A DNA stretch of 64,000 nt from an uncultured Candidatus Saccharibacteria bacterium (GTDB taxonomy: Bacteria; Patescibacteriota; Minisyncoccia; Phycocordibacterales; UBA9973), in the NCBI GenBank assembly GCA_964397435.1, contig CAYNHU010000002.1, positions 17,423 through 81,422 on the forward strand, written 5' to 3'. The notes below the pieces were generated by a model. The model was not told the DNA's origin. It did not search any database and was given only the letters and a program-made list of their open reading frames with translations. Below are positions 9,863-38,280 of the stretch, in pieces (position 1 is the first letter of the stretch; each line of letters begins with the position of its first letter). Made by a program: the position numbers and the translations under genes.

Positions 9863-11224
9863 CTATTTAAACATGATTCTTAACTGTTCGACCTCACTAA
9901 CTAATACTGGATCTGCTTTCATATCATTTTTAATCTTGTCGCATGAGTGAATTACTGTCGTATGATCCTTACCACCAAGTTTCTGGCCGATGAGTGGATA
10001 TGAAACATTGAATTCTTCACGAAGGATATACATAACCATCTGACGAGCCTTCACAATTTCCTTTCGGCGAGTCTTGTCATAGATAGAATTCTCCTCCACC
10101 CCATAGAAATCAGCAACAATCCTAACGACTTCTTTTGAAGAAATCTGTTTTTTAGGTTTTACACTGTTTTTAATGAGATTTTTTACTTCAGTAAGACTCA
10201 ATGCACGATTGCGAAGTTGAGTTTGCATGATAAGTGTATTGAGATTTCCTTCGAGTTCTCGGATATTACCTTCAACAGAAGCAGCGATGTACTCTAAAAC
10301 ACCTTCTTCAACAGCAATTCCCTTTTCTTTTATCTTTGAACGCAAAACAGCAATACGAGATTCATAGTCTGGTTCAATAACATCAACAATCATTCCCTGT
10401 GAGAAACGAGATCGAAGGCGATCTTCGAGACCAGGAATGAAGTTTGGATGTTTATCTGATGAGAAGACAATCTGTTTGTTTGCTTCATAGAATGAGTTAA
10501 AGAGATGGAAGAGTTCCTCTTGGCTTTTCTCCATTTTCCCAATGAACTGGATATCATCCATAATCAAAACATCATATTTTCTATACTTTTCCTTGAAAAC
10601 ATGTGGTTTATTGTTCTGTACAGAACTAATATAGTCCATAGCAAACTTCTCGAGGGTGATATAGTGGACGCGCTTTTCTGGGTATTTAGTTTTTACTGCG
10701 TTTCCGAGTGCTTGAATAAGGTGAGTTTTACCGAGACCAGTGTTTCCGTAAACAAAAAATGGATTGTATGCACGTCCTGGCTTGCTAATAATTGCCTGTG
10801 CAGCTGCATATGCAAGTTCATTAAAAGGGCCAACAATAAAAGTATCGTACGTGTATTTAGGATTGAGGTTGTCATCCTTGTTGATGGGTGTTTCTGTGAG
10901 AGGAAGTTCTGCGGGAGCGTCTTGTTTGTGAGGCGCGAGAGCTTCAGCTTGTTTCTGAATGCGCATTTCAGGCTTCATGATCATGTATTCGACAGTACGA
11001 ATATGATCAGCTATTCCCATGAGAGATTTAAGGATGAGTTTATGATATTTTTGGATGAGCCAGTCTTTAACAAACTCATTAGGTACACCAACAAACACTA
11101 CCCCGTCTTCTTCGCGGATAACTGCTGTATTTTTAAACCAAGTATTAAAGTTGGCCTTTGAGACTTCAACCTCAATATCCTTTAAACAACGTGACCAAAG
11201 TTCGCGTGTATCAGTTATCTCCAT
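9863..11224 (-). CDS. dnaA: chromosomal replication initiator protein DnaA
   Basis: AAA+ Walker A motif GNTGLGKTHL, Walker B motif LIMDDIQF, and C-terminal DnaA-box-binding HTH. Length is 453 aa. Confidence 0.95.
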   Translation of the reverse strand: MEITDTRELWSRCLKDIEVEVSKANFNTWFKNTAVIREEDGVVFVGVPNEFVKDWLIQKYHKLILKSLMGIADHIRTVEYMIMKPEMRIQKQAEALAPHKQDAPAELPLTETPINKDDNLNPKYTYDTFIVGPFNELAYAAAQAIISKPGRAYNPFFVYGNTGLGKTHLIQALGNAVKTKYPEKRVHYITLEKFAMDYISSVQNNKPHVFKEKYRKYDVLIMDDIQFIGKMEKSQEELFHLFNSFYEANKQIVFSSDKHPNFIPGLEDRLRSRFSQGMIVDVIEPDYESRIAVLRSKIKEKGIAVEEGVLEYIAASVEGNIRELEGNLNTLIMQTQLRNRALSLTEVKNLIKNSVKPKKQISSKEVVRIVADFYGVEENSIYDKTRRKEIVKARQMVMYILREEFNVSYPLIGQKLGGKDHTTVIHSCDKIKNDMKADPVLVSEVEQLRIMFK

Positions 11225-13393: not shown

Positions 13394-15016
13394 TTAGATA
13401 ACTTTTTCTGGTTCAGGAGCGAGATTGTATTGCCAGAGTGTATTAGTGTCTCGGTTGATGTAGTAGAGATATTGTCCTTGTTCATCAACCATGAGTCGGA
13501 TACCATCAGCTGATTCTGCCCCTTCTGAGAGTGGGTTGAACAGATAAGTGTTTCCGTATGTTCCAGTGATATCTATTTGCCAGAATGAATCAGAGAAGTT
13601 CACTGTTCCTTGGTACCAGTCATCAGGATAGCTATTTGAGGCCGAGAGGGCGTTTGGTACTGCGCAATATATGAACGTACTATTCTTTGCCCAAGCACAC
13701 TTTTCTGGAAGTCCATACAAATTAAGATTTTTAATTTGTTTCGTTTCCATTGATTGAAGTCCAAGCGCTGGGCCATTTGTTGTATTACGACTGATGAGGA
13801 GATATTTTCCATCTGGACTCATGAGTGTGGTAAGCGCTGTGATTGGTCCAGATACTTTTGTGAAGTCGTTTTTGGTTAGGTCTGTTGTGTATGCGTAACC
13901 AGTTGCGTATGCAGTTGCCTTGATGGTAAAGATGAGTTTTGTTGGTGTTGCCCACTGAGAGAGCCAACCAAAGAATTGTGACGAGAAAACTTTTTTCTGA
14001 TTCTTGCCATCAATATCACTTATGAAACCCGATAGTGCCCTCTCGTTTGGTATGAGGTAGAGAATTTGTTTACCATCTGGTGACACAACAAGATCGCTGA
14101 TATTTTTGGGCATTTCTGATACCGCTAACTCAGGAAGACCATCACCACCCACGATTGGTTCTGTTATTTTACCAAGGAGTGTGGTGATTGTTTGGTTATC
14201 AGCAGCAAGACTTCGGAGGAATACAGACTGTCCATTTTCTGCAAACCAAGCTTCTTTTGTGCGAGGAATGGTTGTGTCAGAAAGTCGAGTAGCTTGGAGT
14301 GTGTCTGAGAACGCATCAAAGATGTTACTTGTGCCTTGAACTGCGTAGCGGATAACTTCGCGGAGTACTGTTTCTGGTGCATCAACTGGTAATGTACAAC
14401 TAAACCCAGCAGTGATTTTCTTTCGAGTAATCTCATCAAACTGTCCGTTGCCTTTTGTAAGATATCGAGGTTTGAGAAGTTCGTCAGCAAACAGTTCTTG
14501 GAATTTTGTTACTGCTTGTGTTGTTGTTGGGCCATAGAGAGTACCCTCTTTGCCCGGTGAGCCTGATCCTGTTTTTGCAACTTGAGTTGCTGGGCACTGA
14601 TTCAAAACTTTTTGAAGTTCCGTAACATCTTTTCCTGTGTCGCCAGCTTTGAGATCTTTGGTGAAAATGTAGCTTGTTGTAATGTTGAGTACTTTTGGTT
14701 CAGGAATTGAGTTCGGATCAGTTGGCACACGTTTAGTTGTGAGCGTATAGCCGACGACAGGGTCAAGACTTACTTTGCGGAGACGAGGAATTTTTGTTGG
14801 AGTTTCTCCACCTGTTCCCTGCTGGCCACCTGTCCCACCAGGTTGTTGTCCCTGATTGTTTGACGGGCTTCCTGGGCCGAATGGAAATAGGTCTTTGATA
14901 GTTACAGGCTCACCAGGGTTTTTGTTTTGTGCATTACGATAGGCAAAAAATCCGAGAATGAAAATTCCGAGTAGTACAAGTGCTATAACGATGATGATAA
15001 AAGTTTTTCTCGACAT
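13394..15016 (-). CDS. membrane-anchored protein with putative peptidoglycan-binding domain and C-terminal TolB-like beta-propeller repeats
   Basis: N-terminal TM, then a G/Q/P-rich linker. PG_binding_1-like motif LKAGDTGKDVTELQKVLNQ...TQAVTKFQELF. Repeated SPDGK motifs typical of WD40/TolB-like blades. Last gene of the T4SS-like operon. Confidence 0.6.
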   Translation of the reverse strand: MSRKTFIIIVIALVLLGIFILGFFAYRNAQNKNPGEPVTIKDLFPFGPGSPSNNQGQQPGGTGGQQGTGGETPTKIPRLRKVSLDPVVGYTLTTKRVPTDPNSIPEPKVLNITTSYIFTKDLKAGDTGKDVTELQKVLNQCPATQVAKTGSGSPGKEGTLYGPTTTQAVTKFQELFADELLKPRYLTKGNGQFDEITRKKITAGFSCTLPVDAPETVLREVIRYAVQGTSNIFDAFSDTLQATRLSDTTIPRTKEAWFAENGQSVFLRSLAADNQTITTLLGKITEPIVGGDGLPELAVSEMPKNISDLVVSPDGKQILYLIPNERALSGFISDIDGKNQKKVFSSQFFGWLSQWATPTKLIFTIKATAYATGYAYTTDLTKNDFTKVSGPITALTTLMSPDGKYLLISRNTTNGPALGLQSMETKQIKNLNLYGLPEKCAWAKNSTFIYCAVPNALSASNSYPDDWYQGTVNFSDSFWQIDITGTYGNTYLFNPLSEGAESADGIRLMVDEQGQYLYYINRDTNTLWQYNLAPEPEKVI

Positions 15017-15024
15017 AGGTTTTT

Positions 15025-16083
15025 TTACCAGTGAGCAACATGCCAGTGGTTACTTTCACGAATAAAGACTGCTGTACCGATAGTATATTGGCCAGCTTGA
15101 CCGCTTGGACAGCCGTCACCTGATTGACCTGTAATCCAGTCAACACATTTTTTTGTTGCCAATCCTTTGATGTAGCTATCAAGTGACGGTGTTCCGTTAG
15201 GAGAAAGGTCTACTTTACCACTTCCGATTTGGTGTGAACTGTGGAGCCAGCATTCTGTGCCGCCTGTCAGTGTGAGTTTACAAGTAGCGCTTTCTTTACA
15301 CACATCTTTTCGGAGATCTGCAAGAGACGAAACAGTTAATGCCCCAAGTTTATACACTGTAGTGCAGTCTGATTGTCCAACAGTTGCGCAGTTACTTTTA
15401 TTTACAAGTACACCAACTTCTTCGAGTTTACGACGGTAGTCTGCGTCATTGTCATTGATTTTTGAAAGCCCTCCCCAATTTTGACCGGTATTAAGCGCAA
15501 TTCCGTCCTCTGCTACTGCATTAACACTTGTTTGATCGCAGTTAGTCGTAACAGTTACATTTTGTCCGTTGATTGTTGTTGAGCGGTTCTTTGTTGGAGC
15601 TGGAAGTTCGTCTGTTCCACTAACTTGAACTGAGATACCCTTAGGTGGGTCGACACGAATATCAAGCAGACTTGGGTTGATTGTATTTAGAATAATCCAC
15701 GAGAATAACGCGAGGATGACACCGAAAATTGAGTTACTAATCATTTCTTTACCACCCTCTTTCTTTGAGACGGCGTCAGTTGTCATATACTGGACACCAC
15801 CAATAACGATCATAACTACACCAAGGCCACCAATGATACTTATGAAAATTTTAATAGCAAGGTTGATATAGTCAGCAATGTTTGTTTTAGCAGGATCATA
15901 TTTGTCGTAGACTTGTCCATCACCGAGTGGGATTGGTTCAAGTAAACAGTACTGTCCTGAATCTGTGTCTTCAGTACACACCGCTTGAGCCGGTGTTGGA
16001 AGTGTTGTAATGGCAAAAGTCCCCAAAGCAATAATACTTAGAAAACCAAGAGTTACGAAAATGTTTGAAAAATACGTTCGCAT
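15025..16083 (-). CDS. VirB2/TrbC-like pilin-type protein with about 200 aa Cys-rich C-terminal extension
   Basis: Signal peptide, then two hydrophobic helices (KIFISIIGGLGVVMIVIGGV and IFGVILALFSWIILNTI) separated by a short charged loop, as in T4SS pilins. The C-terminal domain has 10 Cys. Only 2 bp separate it from the upstream gene. Confidence 0.4.
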   Translation of the reverse strand: MRTYFSNIFVTLGFLSIIALGTFAITTLPTPAQAVCTEDTDSGQYCLLEPIPLGDGQVYDKYDPAKTNIADYINLAIKIFISIIGGLGVVMIVIGGVQYMTTDAVSKKEGGKEMISNSIFGVILALFSWIILNTINPSLLDIRVDPPKGISVQVSGTDELPAPTKNRSTTINGQNVTVTTNCDQTSVNAVAEDGIALNTGQNWGGLSKINDNDADYRRKLEEVGVLVNKSNCATVGQSDCTTVYKLGALTVSSLADLRKDVCKESATCKLTLTGGTECWLHSSHQIGSGKVDLSPNGTPSLDSYIKGLATKKCVDWITGQSGDGCPSGQAGQYTIGTAVFIRESNHWHVAHW

Positions 16084-16085
16084 AA

Positions 16086-17144
16086 TTATCTAAGATTAAT
16101 AGTAATATTTTTTTCTGCTTCAAGGAAGAGCTTTATAACATTCTCAACGCGTACAGTAAGTTTTGAGATTCCTTTTGATGCACCGCTTTTGAGTGTGAGC
16201 ATATTTGAAATACTTGGTGTTGGGATCGCATCATCGTTGATACTCCAGATGTATTTGAGTTGGTTTGAGAGTGGATTGTCTGGTGAGAAGAAGTATGGAA
16301 TTGCGAGAATCGTTTTTTCTGCATCACTTACATCATATGCTGCGCCAAGTTCGTGTGCCCAGTCGATACCGTTAATTGGGTCACGAGCGTACAACAATAT
16401 TTTTGGTTTAAAGACAGGCACGATAACTGTTCCTCGAGCAGTTGCCCCTGAAGTATTGTCTTGGCTGGTTACTTCAATCTGTTCCTGTTCATTGAGGTAA
16501 CTCTGTTGAAAGATAAGAGCGCTTTTGTTGAATCCAGAACTTTCTGTCTCAACAAGGTCATTGCGAACCCAGCGGAAGACATAATTATTGATATTTGCTG
16601 TAGTTCCTGAGCTGTTGATCTGTGGAATTGCTACAACACGAATGTAGCCTTCTGATGTTGGAAGTGCTCGTCCTCGATAAAATGGTGGTGTGTATGAGTC
16701 AGCTCCTTCCCAGATCAAATTTGATTCTGAAGGATTAAACACCATTCGTTTCTGAAGGGTTTCGCCTGAAGATAATGCCATTGCAATATCGATAGTTGTT
16801 TTCTGACCAATGTCCCCTGTGGTGAACGTAAACACATCCGCTCCTGTCGCTGAGAGTTCTGTTTTACCGTCTTTTTTCCAAACAAAAAACGCACGATTCA
16901 CATCAGTTAAGTAACTGTTTACAGTAATCGTGACGTCTTGGAATGCACCAGGGACTTCTGGTGACGCTGAAAATGAGATATCTTGAAGGTTAATCTGAGC
17001 AGCTTCTTGTGGAGTTGATTGAGCGTAGGCTCCTGATGACAAAATACCACCCGTTGCGAGAACGAACGCAAGTGCGAATGCATATACTATCGTACGAGGA
17101 AAACCTTTCACTCTTCTAGTATACCATGCAAAATGGCAATACAA
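16086..17144 (-). CDS. secreted hypothetical protein (signal peptide, 352 aa)
   Basis: N-terminal hydrophobic signal ending ...SGAYAQ. Tightly packed in the operon. Confidence 0.55.
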   Translation of the reverse strand: MYCHFAWYTRRVKGFPRTIVYAFALAFVLATGGILSSGAYAQSTPQEAAQINLQDISFSASPEVPGAFQDVTITVNSYLTDVNRAFFVWKKDGKTELSATGADVFTFTTGDIGQKTTIDIAMALSSGETLQKRMVFNPSESNLIWEGADSYTPPFYRGRALPTSEGYIRVVAIPQINSSGTTANINNYVFRWVRNDLVETESSGFNKSALIFQQSYLNEQEQIEVTSQDNTSGATARGTVIVPVFKPKILLYARDPINGIDWAHELGAAYDVSDAEKTILAIPYFFSPDNPLSNQLKYIWSINDDAIPTPSISNMLTLKSGASKGISKLTVRVENVIKLFLEAEKNITINLR

Positions 17145-17162
17145 GTATATTTTTGTGGGTTA

Positions 17163-19001
17163 TTAACGTCCTTGACTCTTTTCGAGGTCCTGCTTAGCCT
17201 TTTTGATTGCAAGGATTTGTGATGGATCAGATGTAACGATTTGTTCTTCGGTATATGAAGCGATAACTTTGATAGCAACGTGCTTAAGTCCAGCAAAGAA
17301 GATACCCTCACCTACCCCAGATTCCAAAAGGAGGTATTTTTCTTCGTCAGTTAGGTGGAATGTCTTTTGAAGGTTGTCGATTGAACTTGGTGACTGTTTA
17401 AGCAAGATTTGAATGGCTGAGTTTGTCACAATTGGAACACCATACTGGCTTTTCATAAAGTCGTCGATGTTTTGGGTAATAGTTGCCAAACCAAGGTAGT
17501 ATTTTCGTCCACGTTTTGCAATTCCAAACAAGAATGACGCTGTGTCTTCTGATTTCATCATAATCCACGCTTCGTCCACCACGAGCAAGCGCTTTTTGAG
17601 AGTTTTACGGACAGCAGTCCAGATATGGTGAGTAACGATGTACATGGCAACCGGCTTCAAGTCTTCTTCCATATCTCGGATTGAAAACACCACCAAACGC
17701 TTGTTGATATCAACGTTTGTTGGCTGGTTCAAGAATGTTGACCATGAACCTTTAGTGAATTTCTGAAGTCGCTGCAAGATTGATTCTGAGCCTTCCATGC
17801 CGGCAACAACCATTTCAAAGTCAGAAAGGAGTGGTGGCTCAACGTTTGCGAGGTCAGAGTCAGGTGTGATGTCTTTGAGAGCGTAGGTTTCTGTGATTGC
17901 ACGGTCAACGAGAGCATCTTCTTCTGGGCTTAAGCCGCCGAGCATGATGCGGAAGAGACCCACAAGTTCGATAACGTTACGGCGAATAACATCAGCCGTT
18001 GTTTCGTCAGCTGTTGGCATTGGCAAATCGAACGGGTTGATATGGTGGTCTGATGAAAGTGAAATGTTGAAGTAACGTCCCCCTACTGCTTCAGCAAGGT
18101 ATTCATATTCTCGTTCTGGGTCGATCACGATAACGTCAGTGTCGAACATCAATGTTCGCAAAATTTCGAGCTTGGTTGTAAATGATTTACCCGAACCAGA
18201 TGTTGCAATTGTTACTGAGTTGTAGTTTTCGAGTGAGAAACGATCAAAAATAATCAAACCAGAGTTATGGCGGTTAACCCCATACAAAATGCCTTTATCA
18301 GACGTAAGATCAAATGACACGAATGGAAAAAGGCTCGCGAGTGGTTCCGAGTTGAGTTTCTGGTGTACCCCGAGGAGGTCGTTGCCGATGGGAATAACAC
18401 TTTTGAAACCATCTTCTTGCTGGAAGAGTGCTGGTTTGATGTATACCAATTTTGATTCAAGAATAGATTTGATTTCGTTTTCTGTTTTGAACAGTTCCTG
18501 CTCGTTGTCTGCGTAGATAGTAATATACAAACCAACATCAAACATTTTTTGCTGTGCTTGCATCAAACTGTTACGCAAATTTTCAAGGTCATTCATCGCA
18601 GTATCAAGCATTGGATCACGAACAAGACCCTTACTCTCTCGAACATTAATCTGACTTTGTACTTCAGCTACTTTTTTCTGGAATTCACGGAGGATTTTTT
18701 CTGTTTCAATTGGATGAATGAAAATAGAAACATCAAAAATTTTATCGAGGTTGATGATTGGAGAAAACCAGTTGTCTGTCAAAAAGCGAGGATATGAGAT
18801 AACAAAAAATGTTCGAGCAATTTTGTCGCCAAGGTTAATTGATTTTGGTTCGATTTTGAGCGCTGATGGAGCAATAATATCTCGGAATTCAAGTGTTGCT
18901 GCTTCGTAGATTTCAGAAGGAAGCACAGGAAGAATACCACTCGCTGTTTGCGTCTGGCTGGTAGCTGTCTTTTTCCCAAATAATGAATCAAAGAATCCCA
19001 T
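17163..19001 (-). CDS. virB4: VirB4/TrbE/CagE-family type IV secretion ATPase
   Basis: Walker A motif IATSGSGKSF, Walker B motif LLVVDEAW, and TQ sensor motif ITQNIDDF. Length is 612 aa with no TM segment. Confidence 0.8.
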   Translation of the reverse strand: MGFFDSLFGKKTATSQTQTASGILPVLPSEIYEAATLEFRDIIAPSALKIEPKSINLGDKIARTFFVISYPRFLTDNWFSPIINLDKIFDVSIFIHPIETEKILREFQKKVAEVQSQINVRESKGLVRDPMLDTAMNDLENLRNSLMQAQQKMFDVGLYITIYADNEQELFKTENEIKSILESKLVYIKPALFQQEDGFKSVIPIGNDLLGVHQKLNSEPLASLFPFVSFDLTSDKGILYGVNRHNSGLIIFDRFSLENYNSVTIATSGSGKSFTTKLEILRTLMFDTDVIVIDPEREYEYLAEAVGGRYFNISLSSDHHINPFDLPMPTADETTADVIRRNVIELVGLFRIMLGGLSPEEDALVDRAITETYALKDITPDSDLANVEPPLLSDFEMVVAGMEGSESILQRLQKFTKGSWSTFLNQPTNVDINKRLVVFSIRDMEEDLKPVAMYIVTHHIWTAVRKTLKKRLLVVDEAWIMMKSEDTASFLFGIAKRGRKYYLGLATITQNIDDFMKSQYGVPIVTNSAIQILLKQSPSSIDNLQKTFHLTDEEKYLLLESGVGEGIFFAGLKHVAIKVIASYTEEQIVTSDPSQILAIKKAKQDLEKSQGR

Positions 19002-19006
19002 ACAAA

Positions 19007-19681
19007 TTATTTTAGCTTGATAGCTGATGAAATTTCCCCTGGATTGAAGACCTTGTAATACAATTCAATCGCCTCTTCTGTTCCAATCTGAACCGAGCGC
19101 ACACCGACACGAGTTAAGCCTTGCTGCACAACACTAATTCGCTGTTCAAGCTGTGTTCGCTTTTCTTCAAATTCAATTAATGAGTCACTTTTACCTCCTG
19201 GATTTGCTTGTTTTGAGCCGCCAAACAATGTTTTGTTAAGCGTACCACCTGCTCCAAGTGCTGATGGTGAATATGGAACAACAACAATGAACTGCTTAGT
19301 CATGATTGCTACTTCATCAGTAAAGTTACGGATGAAGTTAATGTACTCGCGAGTCTGGATTTTGAGAAGTGGTTCAAGCTGCTCCTTCATACGGCCTTCT
19401 AAGAGTGTGATGTATGGTCGAATATCAAGTCGTCGTGATTGCACAACAATCTGTACAGAGAAATCGAGAGAATTCAAAAAGTTCTGAAACTGCATGATGG
19501 TTCCCTGCTGTTCGTCACTTGATTTGAGTGAAAGGTTAACCGATGAAGCAAGCAAGAGGGCACGCATACTACCATCGCTTAAAACAATGATACCGTCACG
19601 TACCTCTTTGACTGGAACAAACTCTTGAGTTGCTTTTGCTTCAAGCGCCATCTCGAAATAGTATACCATATTAGAAACCAC
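19007..19681 (-). CDS. hypothetical protein; by eye its N-terminal pattern parallels the start of the adjacent VirB4-family protein (ATPase-less VirB4 N-domain-like)
   Basis: 224 aa ORF 5 bp upstream of virB4. It has no Walker motifs. The similarity is judged by inspection only. Confidence 0.5.
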   Translation of the reverse strand: MVSNMVYYFEMALEAKATQEFVPVKEVRDGIIVLSDGSMRALLLASSVNLSLKSSDEQQGTIMQFQNFLNSLDFSVQIVVQSRRLDIRPYITLLEGRMKEQLEPLLKIQTREYINFIRNFTDEVAIMTKQFIVVVPYSPSALGAGGTLNKTLFGGSKQANPGGKSDSLIEFEEKRTQLEQRISVVQQGLTRVGVRSVQIGTEEAIELYYKVFNPGEISSAIKLK

Positions 19682-19711
19682 CAGGGTGTTTCCTGTGGCG
19701 GTTTCTGGGTA

Positions 19712-20149
19712 TTACTGGTTTTGTTGATTTTTCTTTTTCTCCATATCGAGCACGTCAAGACTCCATGAGATGTCTTTCAGTTTTGAATTTGAGAGTTTCG
19801 GAATGTAGGCAAGATTACTCAATGTGTCAGCCTCGGCTTTTGGTGCTTCCGCTGCTTTTTTAGCAGCTGCCTTTCGTTGCTTCCAGACGTAAAGTTTTGA
19901 GCTAATGTAGTAGTTGAATGCCGATTCGAGTATGAGGATGAACGGACGGTTATTTACTTTGTAGAATGTAAGTGCAAGCGCCAACCCAGCAACAGGAAGA
20001 ATGACTGGTATTGCAAGGTAGATTGGAAGTATTTTATATAATACAAATGACGCACCCGCTCCACCCACGAGATAGATGAATTGCTTGAAGGTAAAAGGTC
20101 CGAAGATCTTGTCTTCAACATCAATAAATTGAGGAACCTGAAATTGCAT
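19712..20149 (-). CDS. PrgI/VirB3-like small membrane protein
   Basis: N-terminus MQFQVPQFIDVEDKIFGPFTFKQFIYLVGG and two TM helices match the PrgI-family (VirB3-like) pattern. Lies upstream of virB4 as in Gram-positive T4SS. Confidence 0.55.
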   Translation of the reverse strand: MQFQVPQFIDVEDKIFGPFTFKQFIYLVGGAGASFVLYKILPIYLAIPVILPVAGLALALTFYKVNNRPFILILESAFNYYISSKLYVWKQRKAAAKKAAEAPKAEADTLSNLAYIPKLSNSKLKDISWSLDVLDMEKKKNQQNQ

Positions 20150-20215
20150 ACGTATAGTATAACAGTTCGTAAAAGAAAAATCAGGGGTAATCCCCTGATT
20201 TTTCGAGTATCGATG

Positions 20216-21022
20216 TTATTCGATTGGTTCTCGGTATGAGTCAGCTCCTGATTTTGCTGGTGCTGGACTAACCGGTTTGATTGAGTGATCTGTTTCTTTT
20301 GCTGGAACACCGAATGTTCCGCCAAGCTTGCCTGCGAGAATGTCCGCAGTTGGCTGAGCTGTCATCGGAATTGGCTGGCTCGCTGCTCCGCTCGGTGTAG
20401 TACCAGCATATGGCGCTCGTGGTACTGGGATATCCATGCCTGCTGGCTTGATCGGTGGCATTGAACTTGGAGCTGCTGGAGCTGGTTTTGCCATTTCGTT
20501 CAACGGTCGAGCTACTGATTTCATCGGATTTTCAATGCTCTTCAAAAGTGCATCTCGATCCTCAGTTACCGCAGCATTTGGAGTTGTTTTAGGAAGTTCT
20601 ACTCCAACTGAAACACCAGAATTTGAGAGGATTGTTTTTTCAGTAGTGCTTACTTCGTCCTCTTCGTCGTCGTTTTCTTCTTCGCGAGAGTAGAGACTCA
20701 TAAGGGATGCTTTAATTGGCGCAAAAACCTGTTCTTTAATTTCAGAGATCATTTGAGTGAGTTCCCCTTTTTTCTTGCCGAGCTCTGTCTCAAGAGTATT
20801 TTCGTAGTTTGCTGGACTAGAAACTCCAAGGAGGACCATGGTTGTTTCAATTTCAAGTTTACCAAGTTGCTCGTATGTGAGCTTATATTTTTTTGCAGTT
20901 TCAAAAAGCTTCATTTGGTAATCGCTTGATGTTAGAATATTTTTTATTTCATCTGGAAGAAGCTCGAAACGTGTTCGAAGTTCTTTTTTTACATCATCAA
21001 AGTTGTCTTGTTGTGTGTCCAT
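20216..21022 (-). CDS. hypothetical protein with acidic stretch and Pro/Ala-rich C-terminus (268 aa)
   Basis: ORF within the operon. Has a low-complexity DDEEDE region. Confidence 0.55.
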   Translation of the reverse strand: MDTQQDNFDDVKKELRTRFELLPDEIKNILTSSDYQMKLFETAKKYKLTYEQLGKLEIETTMVLLGVSSPANYENTLETELGKKKGELTQMISEIKEQVFAPIKASLMSLYSREEENDDEEDEVSTTEKTILSNSGVSVGVELPKTTPNAAVTEDRDALLKSIENPMKSVARPLNEMAKPAPAAPSSMPPIKPAGMDIPVPRAPYAGTTPSGAASQPIPMTAQPTADILAGKLGGTFGVPAKETDHSIKPVSPAPAKSGADSYREPIE

Positions 21023-21065
21023 ACCAATGTCTTTTTATCTGCTAAAAGTATACCATGATTCACTA

Positions 21066-24000
21066 CTAATGATGCCCACCGCCATGGTCATCATGTCCGC
21101 CACCGTGTCCATGATCACCGTGTCCTCCGCCACCGTGACCACCGCTACCGCCTAAACCTTTAAGAAAACCAAAGAAATCTGAACTCGGTCCCTTATATGT
21201 ATCATGATAATGCACATGGTCATGTTTTTCTGTGCTTGTTACGTGATGCATTGTTTCGTATTTAATATCACCAAAAGCACCGCCAACTACATCCTTGATT
21301 GAGCTTGACAGAAATCCAGCTGCAAACCCTCCTAATCCCCCAAATGGACCAGCTACAATTGCACCAGCTGCTCCTGTTTGAAGACCACGCATAAGATTTT
21401 TTCCAAAATCTCGATAAAGATTTCTACCCGCACGTTCACCTGCCTGTGTGAATGATTCATGATCCATGTGCCCCACGTCTGTGATTGTTCCAAGTTCATC
21501 ACGTTTTGTGCCATGCACATGACGACCACCTTCTTTCATGAGTGATAAGTGATATTGTTTAAGTCGAGCAGTTTTAAGATTCTCAAGATTTTTCTGCATT
21601 GAAGTGAGGCTGCGAGAGTTTTCAAAGTCAGCTGCTGTGATTCTTTTAACAGAAGTGGAACCATCGCGTTTTTTAACTTCAACAGCGTTTCCAATGTCTG
21701 ATTTTGAGATAGCCCGAGTTTTACCACTAGCATCAACGATTTTTTCACCAGATCCTTTTTGAAGTGTTCGTAACTTTTCTTTTTCTGTACTGAGGGCTGC
21801 TTGTTTAGTTGCAACAGTTGCCATGATTGCTTTTCCAGCAGGAGACTTTTTACCAGCCGCTTCAGCGTCAGATCTCAATTTTGCAATTTCTTCTTCACCT
21901 CGAGCTACAACATCAGTTTGGTCTGAAATTTCTGTCTCGCGATCCTTCATTTTTTTCTCTTCGTCAGCGTACTGTTTCTTGTCATAGCCACTTCCAAATA
22001 TTTTCTCATCCTCCTTGGCTTTCTTGGTATCTCTATCAACCATAGCTGTATATCCACCAGCCCGAGCGCCTGTGCTTAAATCTACTCCTACACCAGCAAG
22101 AGTACTTGCTGTATTGAGTAATCCAGCACCAGTATTCATATTTACGTTTGTTGCTTTTGAAATAACGTTACCAAGACCTGTTTGACGAGCATCAAAACTT
22201 GCAGATTTTAGATTATTAGCAACACGAAGTTTTTGTTGGGCTTGCCATCGTTCAAATTTAGTCGCATCTCGTATCGTGCCGTCCTTATTTTTTACTTTAC
22301 CGGACGCCATATCTTTAAGTCGGTCACTATTTGCAACATCAGCAGCCTTCCCTCCAATAAATCGTGCGCCGAGAGCTGCTGCCCCACCAGTCGCTGCCAT
22401 CGCTACCATACCTGTTCCAGCTGCAATTACACCGGCAAATGCACCACCGAACTGTCCAGCCATACTCTCAGCTTGTTTTTTTGCTTCCATAAGCAAGCCA
22501 ATAACAATCATGGTTGGGAGGAGAATTCCAACGAGGAATGCAACCCAGTTTCCATTTTGAGCATTAGTGATAGCACCTATTGTTGAGCCAAGCAAACCAC
22601 CACCAGGACCACCAACGAGGTTTACGATGAGATACAAGAAAAAGAAGAATACAGGGGCTTTGAAACACGCACTCAAGAATGTTTTGAGCCACTCTCCCCA
22701 GCCAAGTTGTTTGAGTCCGTGGTCGAGTGATGGAACAATGCTTGAAACAAATGCGATCGGTGCAAAAATCATCGAGAACCAAATAACTCCAACTCGTCCC
22801 GCAAAAAATGCAGCACACATGAAGAATATCCAGGCCATGATTATGTTCAAGATAAATGAAATCAAGAGCACCATGAATAAAGTACCTGGCGTTACTGACT
22901 GACCGTTACTGCGGAGCTTCTCAAGACTTTCCCCACTCAATAGTTTTTGTGGTTGAATACCACTAATTACAGCAGCAGAAATTGATTTTTCTTTAGGGGC
23001 AGTATCATCAAATGTTGTTGCGGGATTACCTACTGACGAGATATCCATCGCGTTATAAAATACACGGGACAAAACGTTTGATGCATCGATTGCAACGCGA
23101 CAGAAGAACAAACTAAAGTTAATCAAAAGCGCGACAATGATAACCTGAGAAACAATTTTTTTGACGCTTGTTCCATGAAGGTGAAGTGAAAGCACAAGAC
23201 TGAGTGCTGCATAGAGGAGGATGAAGATAAAGAAAATGTTTGCAACGTCGCGGACAACACTCCAGCCATTTTCAACGAACGATGCGATATCAGCTCCATT
23301 GGTTCCCTGTCCGTAAATAGTACTACCGAGTGAAACAGCAGCAAAAGCGTCAAAAAGACGACCTGCCTGCTGAGCAAGCCAGTGTGAAGTACTAACAAAG
23401 ATGTCATTAAACAAAATAACAAAACAAGGTGACCACTTTGTGATTGAACAATCAAGGTCAGCTACGAACGCATCCTGACCACTTTGTTCTGGTGTTTGAC
23501 CGAGTGCTTCTTTAACAGCATCTTCAATTGGTACTGCGCCAAATTTGTTTTCTGGAGCATCAGCTTTTGTTTTTACTTCAACAACATTACTGAAAAACCA
23601 GTTTGTTGAGTTGTCTTCTTCGGCGACTAACTGGAAGTAGTAGGTTGTATTAGGTTCAAGATTAGTAATTGCAACAACCGGGTTGAATGAGTCTTTTTTG
23701 TAGAATTTTTCTGGATATGCACTAAAAATTTTCAACAATTCTACGGCTGAGTTGTCCCCTGGACTTGATGTCTTTCGAGCGAGACTGTACAAACTACCTG
23801 CATCACCTGGAGCAACATCCGGTTTGCGAACCTGGAAGTTACTGACGTTTGATGAGTCATTTAAAAGCTCGGCAGAACTTTGACCAGTATCAACATCAGC
23901 TTTAGTTGTTTTACCTTTACTGACTTGGAGAAAGAATCCGTTATCACGGTTTCCTCCCCCATTTACTGCACCATTAAAGTTTATTTCGTTATAAAATGCG

Positions 24001-24356
24001 TCCCAGGCACTTTCCTTAAGGTCATTCCAATCAAGAGCTCCATGTCCACTAAGTCCAGTGTCTTGGTCTTTTGCTGTGTAGGCATCACCATCGCGACCGA
24101 GAATCATATCAATTTTAAGGTCGACTGCGTCAGAATATTGAGAAACTTTATTTACGGGATCTCCACCTATTTGGGTGAGTTTAATTCCGTTAGCTGGACT
24201 ACAATATGCTCCACTCTCACAAAAGTCGCCACCATCACTTGCGTTCAAAACAGTTTTTCCGTCAATAGCGAGTGCGCGGTTAACCGTACCAAAAGGAAGA
24301 ACCATACTTGCGAGTATGGTGAGTGTCATTATTGCAACGGATAATTTGGAGCGCAT
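21066..24356 (-). CDS. VirB6/TrbL-like polytopic membrane protein with large N-terminal extracellular domain and C-terminal His/Gly-rich tail (1096 aa)
   Basis: Signal peptide, then an extracellular domain of about 350 aa. At least 6 TM helices with TrbL/VirB6-like spacing. Long predicted-disordered C-terminus ending GGSGGHGGGGHGDHGHGGGHDDHGGGHH. Confidence 0.5.
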   Translation of the reverse strand: MRSKLSVAIMTLTILASMVLPFGTVNRALAIDGKTVLNASDGGDFCESGAYCSPANGIKLTQIGGDPVNKVSQYSDAVDLKIDMILGRDGDAYTAKDQDTGLSGHGALDWNDLKESAWDAFYNEINFNGAVNGGGNRDNGFFLQVSKGKTTKADVDTGQSSAELLNDSSNVSNFQVRKPDVAPGDAGSLYSLARKTSSPGDNSAVELLKIFSAYPEKFYKKDSFNPVVAITNLEPNTTYYFQLVAEEDNSTNWFFSNVVEVKTKADAPENKFGAVPIEDAVKEALGQTPEQSGQDAFVADLDCSITKWSPCFVILFNDIFVSTSHWLAQQAGRLFDAFAAVSLGSTIYGQGTNGADIASFVENGWSVVRDVANIFFIFILLYAALSLVLSLHLHGTSVKKIVSQVIIVALLINFSLFFCRVAIDASNVLSRVFYNAMDISSVGNPATTFDDTAPKEKSISAAVISGIQPQKLLSGESLEKLRSNGQSVTPGTLFMVLLISFILNIIMAWIFFMCAAFFAGRVGVIWFSMIFAPIAFVSSIVPSLDHGLKQLGWGEWLKTFLSACFKAPVFFFFLYLIVNLVGGPGGGLLGSTIGAITNAQNGNWVAFLVGILLPTMIVIGLLMEAKKQAESMAGQFGGAFAGVIAAGTGMVAMAATGGAAALGARFIGGKAADVANSDRLKDMASGKVKNKDGTIRDATKFERWQAQQKLRVANNLKSASFDARQTGLGNVISKATNVNMNTGAGLLNTASTLAGVGVDLSTGARAGGYTAMVDRDTKKAKEDEKIFGSGYDKKQYADEEKKMKDRETEISDQTDVVARGEEEIAKLRSDAEAAGKKSPAGKAIMATVATKQAALSTEKEKLRTLQKGSGEKIVDASGKTRAISKSDIGNAVEVKKRDGSTSVKRITAADFENSRSLTSMQKNLENLKTARLKQYHLSLMKEGGRHVHGTKRDELGTITDVGHMDHESFTQAGERAGRNLYRDFGKNLMRGLQTGAAGAIVAGPFGGLGGFAAGFLSSSIKDVVGGAFGDIKYETMHHVTSTEKHDHVHYHDTYKGPSSDFFGFLKGLGGSGGHGGGGHGDHGHGGGHDDHGGGHH

Positions 24357-24404
24357 CCTATAGATAAGTATACATTACTTAGATATTTTTAGGAATGTGT
24401 AGCG

Positions 24405-24460
24405 GTATTTTTGGGGAAAACAATTCAGCCCGGGCATGCTTCGCGTGCCCGGGCTGAATT
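24405..24460 (-). terminator. intra-operon hairpin/partial terminator (AATTCAGCCCGGGC...GCCCGGGCTGAATT) between the 919 aa gene and the VirB6-like gene
   Basis: 14 bp GC-rich perfect inverted repeat followed on the minus strand by TTGTTTTCCCC. Confidence 0.45.
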
Positions 24461-24474
24461 TCTATAACAAACAA

Positions 24475-27234
24475 TTATGGAGTTCTATAATCAACAACAG
24501 CAGATTCATAGAAGTCGCTACAATCGAATTTTACCTTTCGGAAGAGTGATTTATACACACCTCTACCATCAGTAAGGTCTTTCTTATCAACAAGTGATTG
24601 ACAGAAGTACATACGTTCCCCATCTGTCTTACTTGGCTTGTAGTTAGGGTCTGTACTATCGTAGTCTTCCATAAAATCGAGTGCTTGATTAAGTTTCGCT
24701 TGACCAGTTGCAGCAGGATCCCAGTTGTCAGTAAGACTAAGCTGGTTTGTACTCATTACGATAGAGTACAAAAGTGTAAGATTTTCATCACTCAAACCAT
24801 CATAAGTATCTTTACGATCTTCATTTACAGAATCAACGAGATACGGATCATCTGCAAGTTCATCTCGCATTTCATCAACTGTTTTGTTAGTAACAATGTG
24901 AACCAATTCAAGACCAGTTGTTTCTTCTGCAAGGTTTGCATTTGGGTTGGTTGTTGGATCACAGTTTACTGAGTTCAATTCACACTCTTCAGGAATGTCA
25001 CCACCGCCAAATGAGTTAATATACACATCGTGTTCACGGTTTGCAATCATGACACCAGTCACAGCACCTTGTGTCGCAGAGATCGGAGCTGAGAGACCGA
25101 AGGTAAGAATTGTTGTAATTACACTACCTGCAATGTTGAGACCCTGAAGTGCTGCAGCTTGCTGTGCTTCTGGATCGTAATATCCGTGAGCATTTACTTG
25201 GGCGAGTATATTTGGAGGTACTTGTGAAGGATTGAGGTGTATAACTGATTTAATGAAACGATCTTTAATGTGAAGCCTGTAGACATGCTGTGGTCGAGCG
25301 TTTTCAATCTCAAGACGAACCTGAGCGATTGTTTTCAATACGTTGTCGTACTCGAACTTAATTTTCTGCAAAGAGTTTTCTGCATCCTGCACTGTGTATG
25401 AGTTAGGTGCATCTCCAGCCATTAATGAATATTCCTTAATCAAAAGTTGGAGTTGTTTGTTTCCTTCACCAGTAAGTCCGAGTAATGGATTTACTGTCGC
25501 AGGTTCCTGTCCCTGGGCTGCGAGATATTCGTTAATTCCAGGATCGACTGCTGTTTGTGCTGTTGGATCAGTGTAGTTTTGAATAATCTCGTTCAATTTA
25601 ATTTTGATGTTCTTGAGTCGGTTGAGGATCGTGAGACTATCAATGTATTTTTCCGTAAAGTCTTTTTCTTTTGCTGAGTAGCGATATGCATCTTTGATTC
25701 GTGCCTGCACATCAGTATATGACGCAATTGTATTAGTAAGTGCACGGATGCGGATATCTGAAGGAATAGAATTTTGTCTATCAAGGAGCTGACTAACAAT
25801 ACGGTCGGTCTTTTCCTGCTTCTTCTTTGTACCCTTACCTTCTTTTACTTGCCACTTCTGTAAGATTTTTGCGAATTTTCGATTGAAACGATTTTCCCAT
25901 CCAAACTTTGGACCAGGAACAGTGTAATCAAGTTTGCGAATAATTCCAGCGAATGACTCTTGATTTGATGTTCCGTGGAGAAGGTCGAGTATTTGTTTGT
26001 AACTATCCACTTGGCGTTGCGCAAGGTCAATCATTGTTTGCTTCATTGGCTGACCATTTGCATCAACCTCGAAATCAAAACCTACAAGCAACAGTGTATT
26101 GAGATCGATAACTTTGTCAGGAGATTGAGCCCAGTTATCTGCGCCACTTGAAGTCATTGAATTTGGACCAGCAAGTGTCTGTCCTTCGTAACTCCATACA
26201 GTACTACCTGAATTTGAATCATCTTTACCAATTGTTGAGAGTGCAGTGAGTCCTTTGTTAAACAATGAAGTTGTGAGTGCGTTCAAGATTGAAGAGAGAC
26301 TGTTTCCAAGAGCTGCCCCCAACTGACTTTGTGCGAATTTTGAACCGAGCGCTTGGTTGATTTGTGACTGAACGATTGAACCAGGTGAAAGTGTTTTCCA
26401 TTCAAGACAGTCTGAATCTTTCTGTGCGCCACCGAGGAAGAATTGGTTTGTTGGGGTTGGGTTTTGTTGTCCTGAGCCTGTTTGTGTTGTTGCAGCAACT
26501 TGTGGTGCAGTCTTCCACTTTGTACACATGCGTTGATTCAAGAATCCCTGACTTCGATCAATTTCTTTTTCAACTTGCTGTTTTGCTGCGTTTACTATTT
26601 TTGCTGCTTTGTCTGCCGCCAAGAAGAGCGAGCCGAAGGCGTTGTTTGCAGGATTCTGGCTGTAGGCCTCATATGCTGCCCAGCCACCAACACGGAAGTC
26701 CTTTTGGAATTTATTTGCTTCTGAACCAACAATATTTGTGAGAGTGTATGTCATTTCCTTACCGACATCACTGTTTTTATTGCGGTAACTTGAGATGAGT
26801 GCCTGTGAAACTTCTCGTCCGTATGGGAATTTACTTGCGTTGTAACCAATTGTATCAATCAAGTTTTCCAGTTGTGTATCACCAATATTTTTGAAAAATG
26901 ATTTTGGATTTTCTACAAATTGTGGTGCTCCTTTGAAACCACCGTTGATCCAGTTAACCGTTGCTTCAGTGAGTTTATTCAAAAGAACTTGAGCGATTGC
27001 TTTCAATACCTGAGCAGCAAGCTTAATGACGAAGTCTTTAACGGTTGTAGCCGTGTTTGCTGTTTGTTGACCAGTGTTTACGCCAGTAAGTGATGTGTGT
27101 GGAATATCAAACATTTCGTCACTAAACATGTTTGCTCGTGCTTCATAAAGAGGAACAAGCAGTGTGTTGAGTGCAAATACTGTAAAAAAAATGTACGCAA
27201 ACATTTTCTTGTATGTATGTAATCGTTGAATCAT
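24475..27234 (-). CDS. large secreted/surface protein (919 aa), function unknown
   Basis: N-terminal signal/TM (FAYIFFTVFALNTLLVPLY). Coherent long ORF in the T4SS-like operon. Confidence 0.6.
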   Translation of the reverse strand: MIQRLHTYKKMFAYIFFTVFALNTLLVPLYEARANMFSDEMFDIPHTSLTGVNTGQQTANTATTVKDFVIKLAAQVLKAIAQVLLNKLTEATVNWINGGFKGAPQFVENPKSFFKNIGDTQLENLIDTIGYNASKFPYGREVSQALISSYRNKNSDVGKEMTYTLTNIVGSEANKFQKDFRVGGWAAYEAYSQNPANNAFGSLFLAADKAAKIVNAAKQQVEKEIDRSQGFLNQRMCTKWKTAPQVAATTQTGSGQQNPTPTNQFFLGGAQKDSDCLEWKTLSPGSIVQSQINQALGSKFAQSQLGAALGNSLSSILNALTTSLFNKGLTALSTIGKDDSNSGSTVWSYEGQTLAGPNSMTSSGADNWAQSPDKVIDLNTLLLVGFDFEVDANGQPMKQTMIDLAQRQVDSYKQILDLLHGTSNQESFAGIIRKLDYTVPGPKFGWENRFNRKFAKILQKWQVKEGKGTKKKQEKTDRIVSQLLDRQNSIPSDIRIRALTNTIASYTDVQARIKDAYRYSAKEKDFTEKYIDSLTILNRLKNIKIKLNEIIQNYTDPTAQTAVDPGINEYLAAQGQEPATVNPLLGLTGEGNKQLQLLIKEYSLMAGDAPNSYTVQDAENSLQKIKFEYDNVLKTIAQVRLEIENARPQHVYRLHIKDRFIKSVIHLNPSQVPPNILAQVNAHGYYDPEAQQAAALQGLNIAGSVITTILTFGLSAPISATQGAVTGVMIANREHDVYINSFGGGDIPEECELNSVNCDPTTNPNANLAEETTGLELVHIVTNKTVDEMRDELADDPYLVDSVNEDRKDTYDGLSDENLTLLYSIVMSTNQLSLTDNWDPAATGQAKLNQALDFMEDYDSTDPNYKPSKTDGERMYFCQSLVDKKDLTDGRGVYKSLFRKVKFDCSDFYESAVVDYRTP

Positions 27235-27258
27235 AAGTATAGTGTAATACAGTTGCTG

Positions 27259-28122
27259 CTACTTAGCCACACTCGCAGTACTATATGGAATCTTAGTAGT
27301 AAAAGGTCCGACATATTCAACAAGCTGGGTAAGTATTTTTGGGTAGTTCACCATAATACTCATTGCGCTAATTGGGTTTGCAAATGTATTTCTCATACCC
27401 TGAATACTTCCTCGTGCTTTCCCGAGAATATTAAGAAATTCAAGATGTCCGTCTTTGAGGTTTGTTGGTACAGATAACTTTTTAAGTGCCTCAATCAAAT
27501 TTGTATATCGTGTAATGATTGGCTCAAGTTTTGCAAGTTCGCTTGGATCATTCGCATCAAGGGCGATTTGCATAATTTGGATTGAGTTATCAATATCAAG
27601 AGGATATTTTTGGCTCACGAGATATACGTAGTCGTTGAAATATCGAGTTTTGTTTGTGTCTGTTGCAGGTACAACCTTGATGTCTTTTTCAGTGAATAAA
27701 TCTTCAAGGGTTGTAGATGCAATGCGAGCACTCACCTGTTCAGCGATTGTTTGAGCACCCTCTTCTGTAAGCTCGCCTGACTGACTAATAGTCGCTGCTG
27801 TTGTGAAAAGATCACGAGCGAATTGTTCAGTTTCGTTAAGCTTTTCATCAGTCCCCGCATCTGCTGTTGGTGTAACGCCAAGAATCTCCTGAATATTTTG
27901 TTTCCAGTCAGGAATACCATCGGTATTTTCATCTATTGTTGTAATGTCATTCACAACAAGTGGAGCGACAAGAGGTTGAGCAATTAATTTCTGCTCACGC
28001 TTTGTTTTTAAATAACCAAAAAGCTCGATAACACCCCAAATGAGTGCAATCGAGAGAATAATAAAACCAATCTTTTTAAGAAACGACCGACTTGGAAGAT
28101 ACTGTTCTATGTTTGTAAACAT
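27259..28122 (-). CDS. bitopic membrane protein (N-terminal TM, 287 aa), possibly VirB8/PrgL-like by topology
   Basis: Single TM helix at residues about 17-37 with the remainder extracytoplasmic. First gene of the operon. The VirB8 assignment is speculative. Confidence 0.5.
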   Translation of the reverse strand: MFTNIEQYLPSRSFLKKIGFIILSIALIWGVIELFGYLKTKREQKLIAQPLVAPLVVNDITTIDENTDGIPDWKQNIQEILGVTPTADAGTDEKLNETEQFARDLFTTAATISQSGELTEEGAQTIAEQVSARIASTTLEDLFTEKDIKVVPATDTNKTRYFNDYVYLVSQKYPLDIDNSIQIMQIALDANDPSELAKLEPIITRYTNLIEALKKLSVPTNLKDGHLEFLNILGKARGSIQGMRNTFANPISAMSIMVNYPKILTQLVEYVGPFTTKIPYSTASVAK

Positions 28123-28158
28123 ATATAGAACAAGTATAGCGTATTTTCTAGCGCAAGA

Positions 28159-33654: not shown

Positions 33655-33678
33655 AGATGATTGTATTAGTACTGCTAA

Positions 33679-33843: not shown

Positions 33844-33934
33844 ATGTACAAGTATATACCAAAGAACCCAATTTCGCCTAGCTGTCTACATGTATAACTT
33901 CAAAAAGGTCTATTTTTAAGGCTCAATAAGGGTC

Positions 33935-38276: not shown

Positions 38277-38280
38277 GTGT

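Follow-up and report, generated by a model that had tools for sequence, protein, structure and literature searches.

In a 64-kb stretch of contig CAYNHU010000002.1, referred to here as the window, ten co-oriented open reading frames (ORFs) at 13394–28122 encode what is very likely the Paceibacteria (Nomurabacteria-like) version of Patescibacteria's type IV secretion system (T4SS), a chromosomal and vertically inherited machine derived from monoderm conjugation systems and re-used for an epibiotic lifestyle. The finding as such is already known, because its features match those described by Wang 2023 (Cell 186:4803, PMC10633639) and Quinonero-Coronel 2025 (Microb Genom 11:001409, PMC12102498), and the window brings no new kind of system. 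The comparison with about 80 relatives yields a ten-gene Paceibacteria core set, in which five conserved proteins are still without a function, and it shows a strong constraint on VirB4 and TrsD as against a fast change of the exposed parts. It also leads to a testable idea, namely that the hydrolase domain borne by the single pilin may be matched to the cell wall of the host; if this is true, hydrolase type could serve to predict the hosts of uncultured Patescibacteria from genomes alone. Patescibacteria account for a large part of bacterial diversity and apparently live off other microbes and, to our knowledge, no T4SS other than the one close to their replication origin is known to be essential for the growth of its owner.

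A constrained motor in a fixed chromosomal position

VirB4 is the motor of the system. It scores 389.9 bits against NCBIfam conju_CD1110 (cut-off 325), aligned to model positions 182–733, and its translation shows the Walker A GSGKS, Walker B DEAW and TQ motifs, in agreement with an earlier note on this DNA, made from the letters alone. Its nearest plasmid counterparts are CD1110-family VirB4s of Bacillota and Actinomycetota, at 29–35% identity. The PrgI/VirB3-like protein named in the same note also stands, with 40.1 bits against PF12666 (cut-off 27), and is present in 78 of 82 loci.

Between these two genes lies a 224-aa ORF whose product is, as judged from its profile matches, TrsD-like, that is, the detached N-terminal domain of VirB4. 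The NCBIfam matches are all below cut-offs and comprise VirB4_plasma (2e-8, positions 100–215), TrsD (4.4e-4) and conju_CD1110 (9.6e-4, positions 2–102); an identical sequence in a public contig is annotated as a gene of 214 aa that matches the TraC-like family PF26593, and an hhalign comparison with the N terminus of a full-length plasmid VirB4 is co-linear, at a non-significant E = 0.17. In 79 of 79 relatives the TrsD-like ORF stands apart and ends at a stop codon of its own. As both ORFs are intact and separate in all of these, the split is a conserved arrangement and a frameshifted VirB4 is ruled out. Of the two proteins previously listed as cytoplasmic unknowns, this one has to be taken off the list, whereas the description fits the 268-aa protein, which has no significant match in Pfam or NCBIfam.

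The 1096-aa protein can be supported as a VirB6-like channel protein, although by an indirect route. It consists of a signal peptide, an FN3-like ectodomain, a polytopic core at about residues 290–680 and a long charged cytoplasmic tail, with about seven hydrophobic helices. Neither the protein nor 27 of its orthologues has a TrbL/VirB6 match in Pfam or NCBIfam, so that the VirB6/TrbL-like assignment made earlier lacks a direct profile match and holds through distant homologues and structure: when 34 remoter homologues of the membrane core are scanned, 10 match PF04610 (best E = 2.6e-6), and the AlphaFold2 (AF2) model of the core, with a predicted local distance difference test (pLDDT) score of 78.9, finds R388 TrwI/VirB6 as its best, weak Foldseek match in the PDB (E = 5.7e-3, TM-scores 0.25/0.33). 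The cytoplasmic tail closes, at 21066–21200, with a His/Gly-rich stretch, GGHGGGGHGDHGHGGGHDDHGGGHH; the orthologue consensus has a comparable Gly/His-rich end. The tail may bind metal or may simply be of low complexity.

A scan of one genome per species yielded 586 VirB4 relatives, of which we took the best 80, from metagenome-assembled genomes (MAGs) that bear the labels Candidatus Nomurabacteria, Paceibacteria/Paceibacterota or Patescibacteria group. Their VirB4 proteins are 77–94% identical to that of the window, as against at most 35% for plasmid VirB4s, and this identity served as a proxy for a place in the monophyletic Patescibacteria VirB4 clade. The order ksgA-287-919-VirB6-268-PrgI-TrsD-VirB4-Ig3-pilin-propeller-jag-yidC-dnaA-dnaN is kept in about 80 species-level genomes wherever the contig is long enough, so that the comparison of synteny that had been proposed as a check finds both the order and the place of the cluster conserved.

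Median identity to the window protein is 79% for VirB4, 63% for DnaA (9863–11224), 62% for TrsD, 53% for PrgI, 52% for DnaN and 50% for YidC, followed by 35% for the 540-aa protein, 32% each for the three-immunoglobulin (three-Ig) and VirB6-like proteins, 30% for the 268-aa, 27% for the 919-aa and 25% for the 287-aa protein. TrsD is about as conserved as DnaA, and in each of 51 genome pairs the identity of VirB4 is 13 points or more above that of DnaA, a comparison that is biased upward because the loci were chosen by VirB4 similarity. Conservation above that of DnaA is unusual for a gene of a secretion system. As far as these sequence comparisons can tell, the cytoplasmic motor is vertically inherited and strongly constrained, and the exposed parts are fast-evolving.

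The closest MAGs (L003, L004 and other TPA_asm records; VirB4 90–94%, DnaA 91%) carry the label 'uncultured Candidatus Saccharibacteria bacterium'. This label is probably coarse or wrong, because the architecture of the cluster is that of Nomurabacteria/Paceibacteria loci and not that of the cultivated S. epibionticum.

A single pilin with an exchanged C-terminal domain

The window contains only one ORF with a pilin domain, the product of which matches PF18895 with 36.5 bits (cut-off 26.6) at residues 68–135 and continues for about 215 aa beyond this match, as the earlier description of a VirB2-like pilin with an extension had it. PF18895 is also matched by 26 of 27 orthologues. The core comprises a signal peptide and two transmembrane helices and, because the loop between the two helices follows the positive-inside rule, the C-terminal domain is predicted to lie outside the cell.

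Across the relatives the pilin core is conserved and the C-terminal domains fall into at least ten unrelated sequence clusters, which were typed by a Pfam scan of cluster representatives together with the scan of 27 members. Seven of these clusters match cell-wall enzyme families: NlpC/P60 (10 genomes), VanY (9), SLT_3 (7; 24.3 bits, below the cut-off of 27), SLT_2 (4), YkuD (4), Peptidase_M15_4 (2) and Amidase_2 (2). There are further matches to Amidase_5 and CHAP, and the other types among relatives are a LAS-like one and two unknown ones. The type of C-terminal domain is uncoupled from VirB4 phylogeny: the nearest VirB4 neighbour has the same type in only 18 of 56 genomes, and in some pairs VirB4 is 97% identical yet the pilin enzymes differ, for example VanY against YkuD. 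The N-terminal extensions vary as well, with TIG, CBM_10, FN3-like and Big_1 domains, and 71–561 aa precede the end of the pilin core.

Exactly one pilin-domain ORF is found within 10 kb of virB4 in 69 of 72 loci, and the neighbours of the single ORF are always the three-Ig gene on one side and the propeller gene on the other. A choice among pilin paralogues as the cause of the domain diversity is ruled out by these 69 loci. In the other three (L007, 15982–17868; L027, 15626–16675; L040, 15456–16523), a second pilin-domain ORF is located just past the propeller gene, which may be the start of a pilin multiplication such as that seen in the arrays of Saccharimonadia.

The domain carried by the window pilin itself is common to nine relatives. 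Among the ten orthologues, E, W, L, H, H, S and D residues are invariant, within a motif TGGTExWLH..H-x7-D that is complemented by a C-terminal HxH. An hhalign comparison with the VanY-type orthologues is weak (E = 0.012) and places these motifs on the zinc-ligand motifs, which makes a LAS-type zinc peptidase plausible from the sequence. The nine relatives with this domain have no VanY or M15 domain according to Pfam, and a word-indexed homologue search with the domain found one match. The enzymatic role of the window domain is unproven because its sequence matches nothing in Pfam or the PDB.

Fusions of a pilin with a hydrolase are not mentioned in the survey of Patescibacteria T4SS (PMC12102498) or in the literature searched, which does not by itself prove novelty; the swapping of pilin-borne wall hydrolases may be new.

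Envelope proteins of the cluster

The 352-aa protein encoded directly after VirB4 is modelled by AF2 with a pLDDT of 92.5 as one transmembrane helix and three β-sandwich domains. Foldseek retrieves multi-Ig proteins as best matches (NCAM Ig1-3, phage Hoc and titin FnIII, E ~1e-8), and the fold is not NTF2-like. The protein occurs in 78 of 82 loci and belongs to a family of 2,708 clusters at 50% identity (E <= 1e-3); the public contig has it as a 341-aa gene. Three proteins of 919, 352 and 287 aa had been described as large and secreted. This one is membrane-anchored, the 287-aa protein is bitopic, and the 919-aa protein is either secreted or anchored.

The 540-aa protein had been read as a peptidoglycan-binding β-propeller, and both domains are indeed matched, although only below cut-off (PG_binding_1, 2.7e-4 and 21.5 bits against a cut-off of 23; PD40, 7e-3; TolB, 1.1e-4). 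In 66 loci the C-terminal part of the protein, about 60% of its length, is conserved and has many W, C and P positions that do not vary.

At the other end of the cluster, orthologues of the 287-aa protein hold the same position in 33 loci and share invariant D64, D72, W73, G82, G116 and N231; Pfam and NCBIfam give no match to this protein. Its membrane anchor is followed by an acidic motif of the type DxDxDGIxDWEE (D64, D72, W73), the sequence of which resembles dockerin- or thrombospondin-type calcium-binding loops. In the 919-aa protein, the N-terminal ~300 aa are conserved and the rest is variable, with identity spanning about 40% of the length in 42 loci and invariant T89, G99, G102, W185, N197, N198, C237, C276, P284 and G285. 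It matches no family, and none matches consistently across 27 orthologues; a word-indexed search with its N-terminal domain found four homologues only. The 268-aa gene occupies its position in 53 loci.

Profile searches against the PDB gave nothing significant for the families of the 287-aa, 919-aa, VirB6-like, pilin, 540-aa, three-Ig and TrsD proteins or of the pilin C-terminal domain. The earlier statement that most components have no described homologues is nonetheless too strong, as it missed TrsD, a VirB6 assignment is supportable, and the first 352-aa protein is a three-Ig stalk.

Cluster layout and transcription signals

The ten ORFs encode, from ksgA towards dnaN, proteins of 287, 919, 1096, 268, 145, 224, 612, 352, 352 and 540 aa, separated by gaps of 2–118 nt, which bears out the description of ten co-oriented, tightly packed genes (Table 1). 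On one side the cluster is flanked by ksgA, directly upstream, and uvrD; on the other, jag, yidC, rnpA, dnaA and dnaN follow directly downstream. Its GC content of 0.40–0.43 shows no anomaly against the 0.35–0.45 of the window.

The assumption of a single operon did not survive, since two strong terminator-like hairpins lie inside the cluster; because of them, the cluster is to be seen as several transcription units. In each case none of 200 shuffles folds equally well. A generic promoter and terminator scan performed no better than on shuffled sequence and missed both of these long hairpins, which RNA folding confirmed. TATACT boxes stand 6–10 nt before likely starts, among them 10 nt ahead of that of the VirB6-like gene and 6 nt ahead of that of prgI, and the hexamer occurs 37 times in the window as against an expected 19.8 ± 5.1. 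These −10-like boxes suggest leaderless transcripts with one promoter per gene. Several true start codons probably lie downstream of the listed ones, as in the TrsD-like (214 aa) and the first 352-aa protein (341 aa).

Table 1. Features of the T4SS cluster and of other parts of the window.
Feature	Position	Strand	Evidence or remark
Bitopic membrane protein, 287 aa, conserved first gene of the cluster	27259-28122	minus	One N-terminal helix, residues 18-36
Secreted or anchored protein, 919 aa	24475-27234	minus	N-terminal hydrophobic segment
Terminator hairpin and T-run, intergenic, after the 919-aa gene	24357-24474	minus	RNA fold -36.9 kcal/mol, z = -5.4
Extended VirB6/TrbL-like channel protein (supportable), 1096 aa	21066-24356	minus	Remote homologues, structure model
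Cytoplasmic protein, 268 aa, acidic and Pro/Ala-rich C-terminal half	20216-21022	minus	No transmembrane segment
Second internal terminator hairpin and T-run, after the 268-aa gene	20150-20215	minus	RNA fold -21.2 kcal/mol, z = -5.2
PrgI/VirB3-like small membrane protein, 145 aa	19712-20149	minus	PF12666, 5.5e-10
TrsD-like protein, 224 aa listed, probably 214 aa from ATG 19651	19007-19681	minus	NCBIfam matches below cut-off
VirB4 ATPase, 612 aa, without N-domain	17163-19001	minus	NCBIfam conju_CD1110, 2.3e-116; Pfam P-loop_TraG, 5e-27
Membrane-anchored protein with three tandem Ig/FN3-like domains, 352 aa (probably 341 aa, GTG 17111)	16086-17144	minus	AF2, Foldseek
VirB2-like pilin core with Cys-rich extracellular C-terminal domain, 352 aa	15025-16083	minus	PF18895 T4SS_pilin, 5.1e-9
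Bitopic protein, 540 aa: N-terminal anchor, possible peptidoglycan-binding domain, probable C-terminal β-propeller	13394-15016	minus	Matches below cut-off
TATACT boxes	28133-28138, 24367-24372, 20156-20161, 19660-19665, 17118-17123	minus	Before likely starts
PilB/GspE-type ATPase, C-terminal fragment	3-338		At the window edge, GCEKCNNTGYKGRIGIFE motif
LysM and M23 peptidase	40199-41416		
ComM/YifB Mg-chelatase-like protein (comM)	42292-43857		
XerC/D-like tyrosine recombinase	50971-51978		

Neighbouring genes

Elsewhere in the window, both the comM gene and the pilB/gspE fragment mentioned in the earlier note were found, together with a LysM/M23 peptidase and a tyrosine recombinase; none of the four adjoins the cluster. 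Upstream of uvrD, at 30937–39606 on the minus strand, large ORFs encode proteins of 905, 1118 and 441 aa. Their sole Pfam match is a biotin-lipoyl-like segment of the 1118-aa protein and they show no paralogy to the cluster proteins; they could be further envelope proteins.

What the cluster may be used for

No VirD4/TraG/TcpA coupling protein, relaxase or MobC family was found by Pfam among 50 hand-picked ORFs, nearly all the non-overlapping ORFs of at least 120 aa in the window. Likewise, tblastn searches of the window and of 82 loci (within 10 kb of virB4) turned up no counterpart of the VirD4 (CD1115), the relaxase or the MobC encoded on a conjugative-type Brevibacillus plasmid, whereas the VirB4 of the same plasmid recovered the window and all 82. 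The statement that no VirD4 or relaxase gene is visible in the 64 kb is borne out by these searches. A cluster 'lacking a coupling protein' is accurate for the window and goes too far beyond it, given that VirD4-like genes are seen in 2,918 of 3,035 Patescibacteria genomes, mostly distant from virB4, and relaxases in only 103 of these genomes (PMC12102498). Contact or acquisition, and not conjugation, is the probable use of the cluster. The core of the initial interpretation, a monoderm-type (MPF-FATA-like) T4SS of a reduced-genome organism with no relaxase or coupling protein nearby, holds up and is in essence what has been published for the Patescibacteria T4SS, whereas its analogy to ComB is weak.

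In the mechanism that we propose, PrgI would tether VirB4/TrsD to the VirB6-like channel and VirB4/TrsD would supply the energy and pull the pilin from the membrane. The pilin would then assemble into a short pilus or stalk, with the C-terminal wall hydrolase exposed on it, and this structure would cut the cell's own wall and, at the contact site, that of the host, with the three-Ig stalk and the wall-binding propeller spanning and holding the envelope. The pilin–hydrolase would itself be a main cargo, in a step independent of a coupling protein. In VirB/D4 systems, pilus biogenesis requires VirB4 and not VirD4, and for this reason a pilin is a substrate that can be handled without a coupling protein. 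The swapping of hydrolase domains on a single pilin suggests, at the level of sequence, a role in breaching host walls, and because the wall-enzyme domain is replaced rapidly, host walls as a variable target are favoured over remodelling of the own wall. Once the wall is opened, we lean slightly towards acquisition over the export of effectors. Taken together, we tentatively put forward that the single pilin of Paceibacteria may be a modular carrier of interchangeable wall-hydrolase warheads in a wall-piercing T4SS whose main cargo would be its own pilin, and that the hydrolase type would be exchanged often between close relatives and would help to set the host range.

Several points weigh against this proposal, in addition to the upward bias of the VirB4–DnaA comparison noted above. 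The swapping of domains could be a neutral non-orthologous replacement, and a VirB2-type filament may not tolerate an added domain of about 200 aa on each of its subunits. The 'pilin' may instead serve only as a two-helix membrane anchor of a VirB1-like enzyme whose task is to remodel the own wall, and the activity ascribed to the window domain goes back to one motif and one weak hhalign comparison. No VirB8-like component was recognised by sequence among the cluster proteins, and a VirD4-like gene may lie elsewhere in the genome. Finally, the essentiality data come from Saccharimonadia, which have free pilin arrays and separate hydrolases, and are carried over to the Paceibacteria T4SS by analogy.

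A more doubtful reading is that the machine exports proteins and injects effectors or toxins into a host bacterium, in the manner of the bacteria-killing T4SS of Xanthomonas, with further cargo encoded elsewhere. Wang et al. suggest that the Saccharibacteria T4SS 'may instead export proteins' (PMC10633639), wall-degrading domains are tied to the machine, and the combination of a conserved N-terminal carrier with varying enzyme modules is reminiscent of polymorphic effectors. However, the hydrolase domains belong to Sec-exported membrane proteins and not to cytoplasmic cargo, no candidate effector/immunity pairs were recognised in the cluster, and there is no VirD4 receptor nearby, while S. epibionticum can do without its t4cp homologue (PMC12102498).

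We consider it unlikely that the cluster is a dedicated DNA-uptake machine of the ComB or Ced kind, in which a VirB4-powered channel would bring in host or environmental DNA for nucleotides or transformation. As in ComB and Ced, there is a VirB4 without a coupling protein or relaxase nearby, comM and a PilB fragment lie within the window, and the organism is presumably unable to make nucleotides; the authors of the survey proposed an import of DNA or other macromolecules (PMC12102498). The match of VirB4 to the CedB model, however, has only 39.9 bits against a cut-off of 700, which does not support an ATPase of the archaeal CedB type, and no ComEC family was found among the scanned ORFs of the window. 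The T4SS of Helicobacter pylori ComB resembles the cluster in containing VirB4 without VirD4 or a relaxase, and it transports inwards. ComB is a diderm system with a VirB7/9/10-type core that passes DNA to ComEC. Pfam and NCBIfam recognise no such core among the cluster proteins, and it is essentially absent from the Patescibacteria clade (PMC12102498). In S. epibionticum, deletion of comEC ends competence, which proceeds via type IV pili, and not growth, whereas the T4SS is essential. Because ComEC is dispensable for growth and the T4SS is not in this tested relative, ComB-like uptake becomes less likely and the analogy drawn earlier is a weak one. A DNA-uptake function would also leave the diversifying wall-hydrolase domain of the pilin unexplained.

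It is very unlikely that the cluster is a working conjugation system with its coupling protein, relaxase and oriT encoded elsewhere in the genome. Its machinery derives from MPF-FATA conjugation systems, and the distant VirD4-like genes of most Patescibacteria genomes (PMC12102498) could be taken in its favour; against this, relaxases are scarce in these genomes, the cluster is fixed beside oriC in about 80 species with no hallmarks of a mobile element, and a VirB4 more conserved than DnaA is unusual in a mobile-element gene. The idea of a decaying remnant of an integrated conjugative element (ICE), to which the 'split' VirB4, the missing relaxase and coupling protein and the tyrosine recombinase might have pointed, is refuted and retains next to no probability, because the order and place of the ten intact genes are kept in about 80 Paceibacteria/Nomurabacteria genomes with VirB4 at 77–94% identity, the split is preserved as two intact ORFs in all 79 relatives, the composition is native, and the recombinase is XerC/D-like and 23 kb off. 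Rather than on a plasmid or ICE, the cluster is found with native GC at a fixed chromosomal position next to oriC.

Comparison with known systems

Among Gram-positive MPF-FATA systems (trs/tra of pGO1/pIP501 and the CTn2 CD1110 type), the cluster shares the VirB4 of the CD1110 family. Its gene order had been said to mirror prgH-prgI-prgJ, which is not the case, as the 268-aa gene and TrsD intervene; PrgI-TrsD-VirB4 is instead the order expected for pGO1 (trsC-trsD-trsE), in which a TrsD-type protein sits between the PrgI-like protein and VirB4, and TrsD occurs only in the pGO1 subclass of MPF-FATA (PMC12102498). In the Brevibacillus plasmid NZ_CP144923, PrgI is directly upstream of VirB4 and an NlpC/P60 wall hydrolase is found downstream, an arrangement that the cluster resembles. 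The plasmid module has MobC, a relaxase and VirD4 (CD1115) beside it, none of which was found in the window. The plasmid VirB4 is full length (804 aa), whereas that of the window is without the N-domain. Further differences are the VirB2-like pilin of the window, which is absent from Gram-positive systems (PMC12102498), and the chromosomal, vertically inherited state of the cluster, unlike that of plasmid-borne MPF-FATA.

The T4SS of Southlakia epibionticum ML1 (SEML1_0004-0019), located next to dnaA/dnaN, was found by transposon sequencing to be essential for epibiotic growth (PMC10633639). It comprises a VirB4 of 612 aa (SEML1_0008), a TrsD-like protein (0009), PrgI (0010), VirB6 (0013) and pilins (0014-0019), along with lysozyme, Cys-protease and LAS-fold proteins (0006 and 0007) and an Ig-like one (0005), and the absence of a coupling protein and relaxase from the cluster was noted (PMC10633639). 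The window shares with it the dnaA/dnaN neighbourhood, the order of PrgI, TrsD-like protein and 612-aa VirB4 with wall-hydrolase and Ig-like proteins coming next, a VirB6 extended to about 1,090 aa, PF18895 pilins and the lack of a coupling protein and relaxase in the cluster. ML1 differs in its array of six small free pilins, in contrast to the single pilin gene with a fused enzyme-like domain of the window, in its hydrolases, which are separate large proteins (lysozyme and Cys-protease in 0006, LAS in 0007), and in an NTF2-like (VirB8-like) protein, of a kind that was not recognised in the window cluster.

The closest correspondence is with the Patescibacteria T4SS of the survey, which described VirB4, TrsD, PrgI/VirB3, VirB6 and a VirB2-like pilin in this group, with Paceibacteria as the best represented class, in a neighbourhood of dnaA/dnaN/rnpA/ksgA, with no relaxase and no adjacent coupling protein, and whose authors propose the import of DNA or other macromolecules (PMC12102498). 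The window agrees with it in a VirB4 of MPF-FATA ancestry, TrsD, PrgI/VirB3, VirB6 and the PF18895 pilin, as well as in the neighbours of the oriC region and the absence of a relaxase nearby. The text of the survey does not describe the fusion or swapping of pilin hydrolases, the three-Ig protein or the 287-, 919-, 268- and 540-aa genes of Paceibacteria; nothing essential differs between the two, and a 2025 review lists the Patescibacteria systems as a recognised T4SS subtype.

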